The notes: a model not told the origin generated them from the letters alone. Shown: positions 20,267-22,085, counted from the first letter of the stretch. The stretch: DNA of 32,000 bases from Microcystis aeruginosa NIES-843 (GCF_000010625.1 NC_010296.1:2400001-2432000); one strand, 5' to 3'. Numbers and translations: made by a program.

Positions 20267-20298
20267 AGACAGAAAAAAGGGTTAACCGAACTGGTCAA
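20267..20298. repeat. 32-bp direct repeat, left copy, flanking the lysK cassette
   Basis: AGACAGAAAAAAGGGTTAACCGAACTGGTCAA, identical base for base to 22054-22085. Confidence 0.95.
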
Positions 20299-20447
20299 AG
20301 TTAGATGGCACAAAGAAGACGATACCCTGAACCCAGGCCAAAGATTTACACCTCATCTCGACCTACTCCAGATAACTGAGTATGTCAAGTGTTGGATATT
20401 CCCTTAGAATGTAAAATGTAAAGACTGTAGATACATAAGGTTAATTC

Positions 20448-22055
20448 ATGTTTTGGTCCGACAAAATTGCTGCGGATGCACAAATAAACCAAGTTGTCAA
20501 CGATTCAAAAACACCGTCTGGAAGAGTTCATGTTGGATCGTTGAGAGGGGTTGTGATCCATGATGTGATTGATCGAGCCTTGAAACATGGTGGTAAATCA
20601 TCGAAATTCCTCTATGGTGTTGATGATTATGATGCACTTGATACTGTTCCCCATTATCTCGATCGAGAGAAGTTTGCACCTTACTTAGGGTTTCCCCTTT
20701 GCAATGTCCCTTCACCGGACAATAGTGCCAGCGATTATGCAAAGTACTTCATGGGGGAGTTTCTAGAGGTTTTCGAGCATTTGGGGGTTAGACCAGAGGT
20801 TTACTACTTGCGTGATCTATACCGCTCAGGTCGCTTGAATTCCTACATTGATACCTTCCTCAAAAACGCTCATTTGGTCAGAGAAGCCTATCTAGAGGTA
20901 AGCAAAGCGCGTCGGCCAGATAACTGGTATCCCTTTCAGATCGCTTGTGAAAATTGCGGCAAGATTGCAACAACGGTTGTGTCAGATTATAACGGGTCAG
21001 AAGTTTTCTACACTTGCAAACCTGATGCAACGGATTGGGTTCAAGGTTGTGGTCATTCAGGCTGGGTTTCTCCTTTTAATGGCAATGGTAAATTACCTTG
21101 GAAAGTTGAGTGGGTGGCAAAGTGGGATCTATTGGGAATCACCATTGAGCTTGCGGGTAAAGATCACTCCCAGAAAGGAGGATCTAGAGATGTTGCGAAT
21201 GCAATTTGCCGAAAAGTGCTACGAAAACAGCCACCTTTCCATTCACCCTACGAATTCATTTTGGTCAATGGCACGAAGATGAGTTCATCAAAGGGGGTTG
21301 GTTCAAGCGCCAAAGAAATCGCTGAGTTACTTCCTCCTGAGCTACTTCGATTTTTAATGCTACGAACTCAGCCTAAGACGGTTATTAACTTTGCGCCCAA
21401 TTATGAAACGACAACCAGGCTATTTAGAGACTACGATTCTCTAGCTGATAAGTATCAAGCTTTATCAGCAGATGCCCAGCAAGAATCTGCTTTGCCTGAA
21501 GAGTTAATGCCATTGTTTTACTCTCAACTTGATGGAGCAATTAAGCCTTACCATCCTGTTGATCTCAGCACGCTGATTTCTTTACTGCAAGTGCCTCACC
21601 TCGATATTCGTCAAGAGATTGAAAAACGTAGTAATCAGGCTTTAAGCGAATATGATTGGCAAATTGCCAATCAAAGGATTTCAGTTGCCCAAAAATGGTT
21701 GGCGGACTATGCTGACGAAGAAGAGAAATTGGTTCTTTATCTTGACAGGGTTCCTGAGAAAGTTAGGGACTTGACTCAAGAGCAGGTTGCTTATCTCAGA
21801 CAGCTAACTCATAGCTTGACAGATGTTAAGGTTTGGGAAGCTGACGAATTGCAAACAACTTTATTTGCAACAGCAAAAGAGTTAGAAATGCAGCAACCCC
21901 TTGCATTTAAAGCTGTTTATTTATCGTTCTTAGGTAAAGAGCGTGGGCCAAAAGCTGGAGCTTTGCTGTCATATTTAGAGCGTGATTTTGTGATTACTCG
22001 TCTTCAAGATGTTGTGCAAATAAATGAATCTCAGCTTGCTCTTATTTCTGAATAG
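20448..22055 (+). CDS. lysK: Class I lysyl-tRNA synthetase (LysK-type)
   Basis: 535 aa. The N-terminus MFWSDKIA......V.DSKTPSGRVHVGSLRGVVIHDVI.RAL...G....FLYGVDDYDALD carries a HIGH-like HVGS motif. GTKMSSSKG is the KMSKS motif. Length and layout match archaeal/bacterial class I LysRS. Confidence 0.8.
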   Translation: MFWSDKIAADAQINQVVNDSKTPSGRVHVGSLRGVVIHDVIDRALKHGGKSSKFLYGVDDYDALDTVPHYLDREKFAPYLGFPLCNVPSPDNSASDYAKYFMGEFLEVFEHLGVRPEVYYLRDLYRSGRLNSYIDTFLKNAHLVREAYLEVSKARRPDNWYPFQIACENCGKIATTVVSDYNGSEVFYTCKPDATDWVQGCGHSGWVSPFNGNGKLPWKVEWVAKWDLLGITIELAGKDHSQKGGSRDVANAICRKVLRKQPPFHSPYEFILVNGTKMSSSKGVGSSAKEIAELLPPELLRFLMLRTQPKTVINFAPNYETTTRLFRDYDSLADKYQALSADAQQESALPEELMPLFYSQLDGAIKPYHPVDLSTLISLLQVPHLDIRQEIEKRSNQALSEYDWQIANQRISVAQKWLADYADEEEKLVLYLDRVPEKVRDLTQEQVAYLRQLTHSLTDVKVWEADELQTTLFATAKELEMQQPLAFKAVYLSFLGKERGPKAGALLSYLERDFVITRLQDVVQINESQLALISE

Positions 22056-22085
22056 ACAGAAAAAAGGGTTAACCGAACTGGTCAA
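22054..22085. repeat. 32-bp direct repeat, right copy; overlaps the lysK stop codon
   Basis: AGACAGAAAAAAGGGTTAACCGAACTGGTCAA, identical to 20267-20298. Confidence 0.95.

Follow-up and report, generated by a model that had tools for sequence, protein, structure and literature searches.

An accessory class I lysyl-tRNA synthetase gene forms an insertion/deletion polymorphism at the ycf35 terminator in Microcystis

In Bacillus cereus, a laterally acquired class I lysyl-tRNA synthetase (LysRS) coexists with the class II enzyme encoded by lysS, and an ancillary role in stationary phase or in analogue tolerance has been proposed for it (PMC2916919, PMC1475646). In Anabaena, the threonyl-tRNA synthetases (ThrRS) T1 and T2 are duplicated, stress-specific synthetases (cited in PMC4893482). 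Here we describe a class I LysRS gene, lysK, in Microcystis aeruginosa NIES-843, located in a stretch of 32,000 nucleotides (NC_010296.1:2400001-2432000; the whole stretch is called the window, and positions are counted from its first letter) between a gene for a class I S-adenosylmethionine (SAM)-dependent methyltransferase and ycf35, on a segment bounded by two perfect 32-bp direct repeats. The insertion/deletion polymorphism formed by this segment is real, its limits are sharp, and the gene that it concerns encodes an accessory class I LysRS. The case clearly fits the known laterally mobile auxiliary synthetases, and lysK is a fairly ordinary accessory translation gene that comes and goes; what is unusual is the duplication of 32 bp of a host terminator without a recombinase, together with a left edge shared by three unrelated contexts.

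The resemblance to the lysK gene of B. cereus and B. thuringiensis lies in a class I LysRS being present as an extra, horizontally acquired gene in what, in Microcystis too, would be a class II lineage. B. cereus lysK, which is of the Pyrococcus type, has a T-box leader, whereas an Rfam scan of positions 19500-22700, run at a permissive threshold, turned up neither a T-box nor a lysine riboswitch nor any other element in the Microcystis leader, and the Microcystis protein falls into a large cyanobacteria-specific clade. Moreover, presence and position of lysK vary within the genus Microcystis, unlike those of B. cereus lysK as compared here. With the Anabaena enzymes our case shares the retention, in a cyanobacterium, of a second synthetase for one amino acid; T1 and T2 are however paralogues of the same class and fixed in the species, whereas Microcystis lysK belongs to a non-homologous class and shows a presence/absence polymorphism. 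A literature search found no paper on class I LysRS in cyanobacteria, their large clade of it included, or on lysK in Microcystis.

The inserted segment, which is missing from empty alleles, spans 1755 bp (20299..22053, plus strand) and consists of a 149-nt upstream region (20299..20447, plus strand) and one open reading frame (ORF; 20448-22055), the only substantial one in the cassette, whose TAG stop codon overlaps with its AG the first two bases of the right 32-mer copy. An earlier note, made from the window alone, had stated that the repeats bracket only the lysK-type gene and a leader of about 150 bp, which these measures bear out. In the upstream region, conserved with the closest homologues from TTAGATGG (position 20301) onward, a sigma-70-like promoter (ATGTCA-17-TAGAAT) is predicted at 20382-20410, which would give lysK a short 5′ untranslated region. 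A small divergent upstream ORF (MRCKSLAWVQG...) was considered and dropped, as it is kept in the three closest sequences only and is broken in two further homologous loci (L094 and L177).

The lysK product (LysK, 535 amino acids (aa); 20448..22055, plus strand) carries the HIGH-type motif HVGS, the KMSKS-type motif KMSSS and a Cys cluster. It is matched by PF01921 with 296.2 bits (cut-off 27) over residues 14-345, by the equivalog model TIGR00467 with 343.7 bits (cut-off 147.55) over residues 1-520 and, at residues 440-522, by the Anticodon_2 family PF19269. Against the LysRS of P. horikoshii (1IRX, 1irx_A) the alignment has E=2e-61 and covers residues 13-520 of the query and 20-520 of the chain, with HVGSLRG placed on HVGNFRE and KMSSSKG on KMSGSKG. 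Judged by the family models, both motifs and the whole-length structure match, the ORF is predicted to encode an intact, full-length class I LysRS.

The 32-mer, AGACAGAAAAAAGGGTTAACCGAACTGGTCAA, occurs in two exact copies in the window, at 20267-20298 and 22054-22085, with an offset of 1787 bp. The repeat is exactly 32 bp long and the bases flanking each copy differ; no third copy was found in the window even when up to three mismatches (<=3) were allowed, and none in 100 shuffles. Both copies are present in the independent assemblies L001 (JGI), L002 (ENA), L010, L090, L096 and L182, and at NCBI too, so that the repeat is not an assembly artefact; Logan contigs (k=31 assembly), of 1815-1817 bp, end at the repeat, as expected. 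Among the 182 loci collected, the 32-mer is confined to the spacer between ycf35 and the methyltransferase gene. It is therefore not a dispersed repeat; had it been one, this would, by the earlier note, have spoken against a discrete cassette.

The position of the 32-mer explains its nature. Directly 3′ of ycf35 (a DUF1257 gene at 22115..22549, minus strand, annotated in other assemblies as a 117-aa form starting at 22468) lies an intrinsic terminator (22064..22090, minus strand) with an 11-bp stem (AGGGGTTGACC / GGTTAACCCTT), a 5-nt loop and a T-run, whose fold has -16 kcal/mol (z=-2.9). The 32-mer begins midway along the 5′ arm of this hairpin and reaches to the end of the T-tail, and the right copy (22054..22085, no strand assigned) forms part of the intact terminator. 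The left copy (20267..20298, likewise unstranded) adjoins the methyltransferase promoter and is a truncated copy of the terminator, with only 6 bp of stem left and a 5′ arm that lacks AGGGG; its fold, at -4.7 kcal/mol, does not surpass those of shuffled sequence. The hairpin is found also in the empty site of L011. The 32-mer is thus most of the ycf35 intrinsic terminator and not a recombinase attachment site, and the attachment-site reading first proposed for it is not supported, no integrase or transposase gene having been found in or beside the cassette among the scanned ORFs of the window. The full hairpin at the ycf35-side copy and the truncated one at the methyltransferase side indicate that the duplication is a by-product of the insertion and that the filled state is the derived one.

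The comparison covered six Microcystis species representatives and metagenome contigs. The methyltransferase of the locus is 94-100% identical to those of Microcystis and at most 75% (<=75%) identical to those of other genera among the GTDB species representatives, and in the LysK 90% cluster the member names are Microcystis aeruginosa or Microcystis sp. The window itself matches the JGI metagenome contig L001 without a difference and has about 98.6% identity with Microcystis sp. BLCC-F210. The site described so far (site 1), in the 5′ spacer of the methyltransferase gene (19571..20236, minus strand), is filled and has two 32-mers in the window, L001, L002, L010, L090, L096 and L182; it is empty, with one 32-mer, in L011, L012, L013, L015 and L098, as well as in L014 and L125, which have an additional insertion of about 430 bp. 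In the empty alleles L011, L012, L013 and L015 the two flanks of the window meet and overlap by exactly one 32-mer. The empty site measures 94 bp from the ycf35 stop to the methyltransferase start, close to the spacer of about 90 bp that had been expected after removal of the cassette, and the view of the segment as a discrete insertion, not fixed at this position, is upheld by these single-copy alleles. They also run counter to the other refuting condition of the earlier note, that all related cyanobacteria would carry the gene here as their only LysRS.

The extra insertion of about 430 bp lies at 5560-5989 of L014 (M. aeruginosa W13-11; also in L125), between the 32-mer and the methyltransferase start, separate from lysK; the same short spacer has therefore been struck twice.

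A second lysK site (site 2) lies beyond the opposite end of the methyltransferase gene, within a 2.8-kb islet that is missing from L012. It is filled in L011, L098, L014 and L125; L182 has both sites filled, and L012, L013 and L015 have neither, within the approximately 6 kb inspected on each side of the methyltransferase gene. The site-2 gene has the same orientation as that of site 1 and is 98% identical to the window over 20301-21995; its last 58 nt differ, with the tail DRIKNVAGFLEKMPTISR as against TRLQDVVQINESQLALISE at site 1, and are followed by a small ORF. The site-1 tail is matched at about 95% by L092, and the site-2 tail plus the small ORF by L094, two homologous loci described below, and both tails look like natural variants among the homologues. 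In L182 (positions 1-6700), a single contig of a metagenome-assembled genome, the two copies are 96.6% identical and are separated by an islet encoding a TIR-domain protein (CAP12-PCTIR_TIR) and by the methyltransferase gene. Within the lineage lysK is therefore dispensable and variable: there are loci with it at site 1 alone, at site 2 alone, at both sites and at neither.

Among Microcystis, the region 3′ of the methyltransferase gene (window 17930-19452 and its equivalents in L011, L012, L013, L015 and L090) is a hypervariable islet, which contains a ParE-like toxin gene and a small upstream ORF (ParE/antitoxin) in the window, SnoaL in L090, and lysK with the small ORF in L011. A dispersed repeat of about 50-100 nt, resembling a miniature inverted-repeat transposable element, occurs at 5212-5262 and 28321-28371 of the window and, beside the site-2 islet, at 9198-9307 of L011.

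The core of lysK differs by 1.2-2.6% among strains (97.4-98.8% identity), and the AAA-ATPase, ycf35 and methyltransferase genes that flank it diverge to an equal extent. Its first approximately 300 nt group by site and the remainder is mosaic, a pattern that indicates recombination among alleles. The ratio of nonsynonymous to synonymous substitution rates (dN/dS) ranges from 0.06 to 0.34 and is about 0.1 in nearly all pairs, including those with L092; lysK is thus under purifying selection and functional at both sites.

Outside Microcystis, class I LysRS homologues come from many cyanobacterial orders, with 71-98% identity among the best 120 matches, which include Scytonema, Aetokthonos, Cylindrospermum, Microcoleus, Roseofilum, Tumidithrix and Spirulinaceae. 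The earlier statement that cyanobacteria normally use the class II enzyme was true as far as seen, and incomplete in that class I enzymes fill these best matches. The surroundings of the closest non-Microcystis genes (83-93% at the aa level) are unrelated: lysK precedes a large HTH-XRE gene in L092, L177 and L186 and adjoins dnaB and rplI in L094, obg in L176, HicB and FGE-sulfatase genes in L183, and TPMT and ferredoxin genes in L185. In L181, a contig of 216 kb, a homologue of 86% aa identity (7850-9700) lies amid TrwC/TraI relaxase, IS1, DDE, Tn3 and integrase genes. No synteny is shared across about 70 homologue loci. The 90.7% identity between L092 and the window is limited to 20300-22055, in agreement with the edges of the cassette, and the left edge TTAGATGG, exactly where site 1, site 2 and the L092 family part from one another, is the same, within 1-2 nt, in three unrelated contexts (window 20301, L011 8663 and L092 281). 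In distant homologues the upstream homology fades gradually. The right edge varies with the context, lying at the stop codon at site 1 and 55 nt or more beyond it elsewhere. A flanking duplication was found at none of the other lysK loci among about 90, Microcystis site 1 alone having one; a 19-nt sequence, GGCGGCGCTTCGCGCCGCC, which flanks lysK in L144 and L145, was rejected as a true flanking repeat, being a common GC-rich terminator core with differing flanks.

Two further repeats were observed around homologues. Just upstream of the lysK promoter, L181 carries a 72-nt inverted copy of the lysK 3′ end and downstream sequence, and in L092 a 9-nt inverted repeat surrounds the module, its downstream arm lying in a region common to L176 and L177.

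As to function, LysK is most likely an auxiliary LysRS that would charge tRNALys beside a housekeeping class II enzyme, and it would help when lysine analogues or stress impair the latter; the purifying selection on lysK gives indirect support to such lysylation. Strains exist without lysK at either site, within the stretch inspected; another LysRS must serve them, which makes the idea of an extra synthetase plausible. Class II LysRS (PF00152 and PF01336) is common and 80-89% conserved in cyanobacteria, and Scytonema, Brasilonema and Microcoleus are genera with both classes. A tblastn search with E. coli LysS against all fetched loci gave no match, and the plasmid collection yielded no cyanobacterial lysS. 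No tRNA or tmRNA gene was found in the window.

The general form of the locus, an insert between direct target duplications with empty sites that hold one copy, is that of transposons and insertion sequences (IS). Unlike these, the Microcystis cassette has no transposase and no terminal inverted repeats at its ends, and its duplication measures 32 bp. A target duplication of this length is far longer than usual for a transposon or IS. Transposases closest to the cassette belong to IS4-like copies at 1317-2201 and 29325-30998, some 18 kb and 7 kb distant, and an autonomous transposable element was rejected. Integron cassettes and integrase islands resemble our case as single-gene units in varied contexts, and the left junction, G|TTAGAT, fits GTTRRRY; in contrast to integron cassettes, the lysK unit has its own promoter, no intI or other integrase gene nearby and no attC at its 3′ end, for which there is no room because the ORF runs to the junction. 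With no integrase among the scanned ORFs of the window, no tRNA and no attC, and with a repeat that is host terminator, this class was likewise rejected. A phage search returned as its only match a haloarchaeal virus at 25% identity, and plasmid matches did not exceed 28% identity (<=28%). The guanine-cytosine content of the cassette (42.4%) is close to that of the window (42.9%), and the absence of HIP1 sites from the cassette, which the earlier note had pointed out, carries no weight: there are 13 sites in 32 kb, 0.71 would be expected in the cassette, and P(0)=0.49.

From these observations we consider it probable that the segment is a non-autonomous, single-gene insertion that encodes an auxiliary LysRS and arose when illegitimate or template-switch recombination took place at the terminator hairpin. 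A promoter-bearing lysK segment of 1755 bp would have entered the ycf35 terminator hairpin in the 94-bp spacer and duplicated 32 bp of it, the junctions resulting from host illegitimate recombination at the hairpin, by a template switch or by a staggered break with fill-in. The microhomologies used would be a 2-nt AG and possibly about 8 nt resembling AACTGGTC, a sequence to which the 32-mer and the native flank upstream of the L092 module both show similarity. The product can be written L-[32]-AG-TTAGATGG...GAAT-[32]-R, in which the AG of the stop codon is common to the start of the 32-mer. With the terminator duplicated, ycf35 would keep its termination and the methyltransferase gene its upstream sequence. 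Homologous recombination within core genes on the flanks could have spread the filled allele, and lysK might be lost precisely by recombination between the 32-bp repeats, leaving the excision junction ...TCTGAAT-[32-mer]-AGTTAGATGG....

Several points weigh against this account. A 32-bp target duplication would be unusual for illegitimate recombination, the end of the insert coincides exactly with the stop codon of lysK, and the occurrence of the TTAGATGG edge in three contexts hints at a defined end instead of random breakpoints. Some empty sites may be secondary deletions: the flank haplotypes agcccag and accccac, to the left of the 32-mer, each occur with filled and with empty alleles, which fits either recombination or repeated repeat-mediated deletion. 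With neither of two probes (a synthetic cyanobacteria-like one and P0178) was a class II lysS of Microcystis among the best 120 matches, which came from other cyanobacteria only. Finally, the anatomy, the empty sites, the second site, the polymorphism, the purifying selection and the enzyme family are shown by the data, and we infer the joining mechanism, the coexistence with a class II LysRS in this strain (hence the label auxiliary) and the physiological role.

Among the other explanations, the one that survives best derives the site-1 copy from the site-2 copy within Microcystis, through a tandem duplication of leader, lysK, small ORF, methyltransferase gene and 32-mer, or through a Campbell-style integration of a circle, the redundant methyltransferase gene being deleted afterwards. 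The two sites flank one methyltransferase gene with lysK in equal orientation, their cores are 98% identical and L182 holds both copies; L097 (2342 bp), in the order methyltransferase 5′ part, 32-mer, leader, lysK with the site-2 tail, small ORF and methyltransferase 3′ part, has the very structure predicted for the intermediate, and the junction of 32-mer and leader would be the duplication joint. The tail of the site-1 gene is however a natural one, 95% identical to that of L092, and a deletion cannot create it. L097 has site-1 single-nucleotide polymorphisms across the core and then site-2 sequence, as would a chimeric metagenome assembly, which it looks like. Two or more additional events would also be needed, among them a deletion whose end falls exactly on the stop codon, and two additional bases (AG) are present at the joint. 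We regard this route as unlikely.

Less likely still is that lysK forms a non-autonomous cassette with defined ends, one at TTAGATGG and one at the stop codon or shortly past it, which circulates among cyanobacteria and is moved in trans by an unrecognised enzyme making staggered cuts of about 30 bp at terminator hairpins, so that the 32 bp would be a true target-site duplication. The left edge common to site 1, site 2 and the L092 family would agree with this, as would the many unrelated contexts of lysK, one of them conjugative and IS-rich, and the hairpin nature of the target. Against it stand the restriction of the duplication to Microcystis site 1 among about 90 loci, the dependence of the right edge on context, the lack of terminal repeats and of a linked candidate enzyme, and the gradual fading of the upstream homology in distant homologues. 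That lysK serves self-resistance to a LysRS inhibitor which the strain itself makes, as the earlier note had suggested, appears least probable of all, for although second-synthetase self-resistance is known for isoleucyl-tRNA synthetase and mupirocin and class I LysRS is reported to be less sensitive to lysine analogues (PMC1475646), no biosynthetic genes or families were found in the 32-kb window, nor is a biosynthetic cluster shared around about 70 homologues.

The remainder of the window holds genes for SelO, a TPP enzyme, JAB, CbiG, coiled-coil ORFs, a TPR protein, toxin-antitoxin genes and an amino-acid ABC transporter. The last comprises an ABC ATPase gene and a fused solute-binding/permease gene for polar amino acids (25795-28260), 3.7 kb from lysK. 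Four paralogous small coiled-coil ORFs (13402-15219), in a region (13321-15261) of 300-nt repeats that are 83-100% identical, were also observed, together with heptamer arrays, (GGGGTGT)n followed by (CTGTCTC)n, at 25413-25800 and complementary CCCCACA arrays at 9118-9177 and 28637-28696. The two IS4-like copies (DUF4277 and DDE_Tnp_1), truncated at 1317-2201 and full length at 29325-30998, give rise to a perfect inverted repeat of 1040 nt (1315-2354 / 29172-30211), and the approximately 27 kb between them, which include the lysK locus, may constitute a segment that is invertible or composite.

A core translation function can, as this locus shows, belong to the flexible genome of a bloom-forming cyanobacterium, and related lysK copies are found on mobile DNA in other cyanobacteria. 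The duplication of a terminator without a recombinase is a small mechanistic puzzle. Should LysK make cells tolerant of lysine analogues, or of stress under which the class II enzyme fails, it could influence the fitness of individual strains in blooms, and the natural strains with and without lysK, together with the clean empty site, would make its role directly testable.

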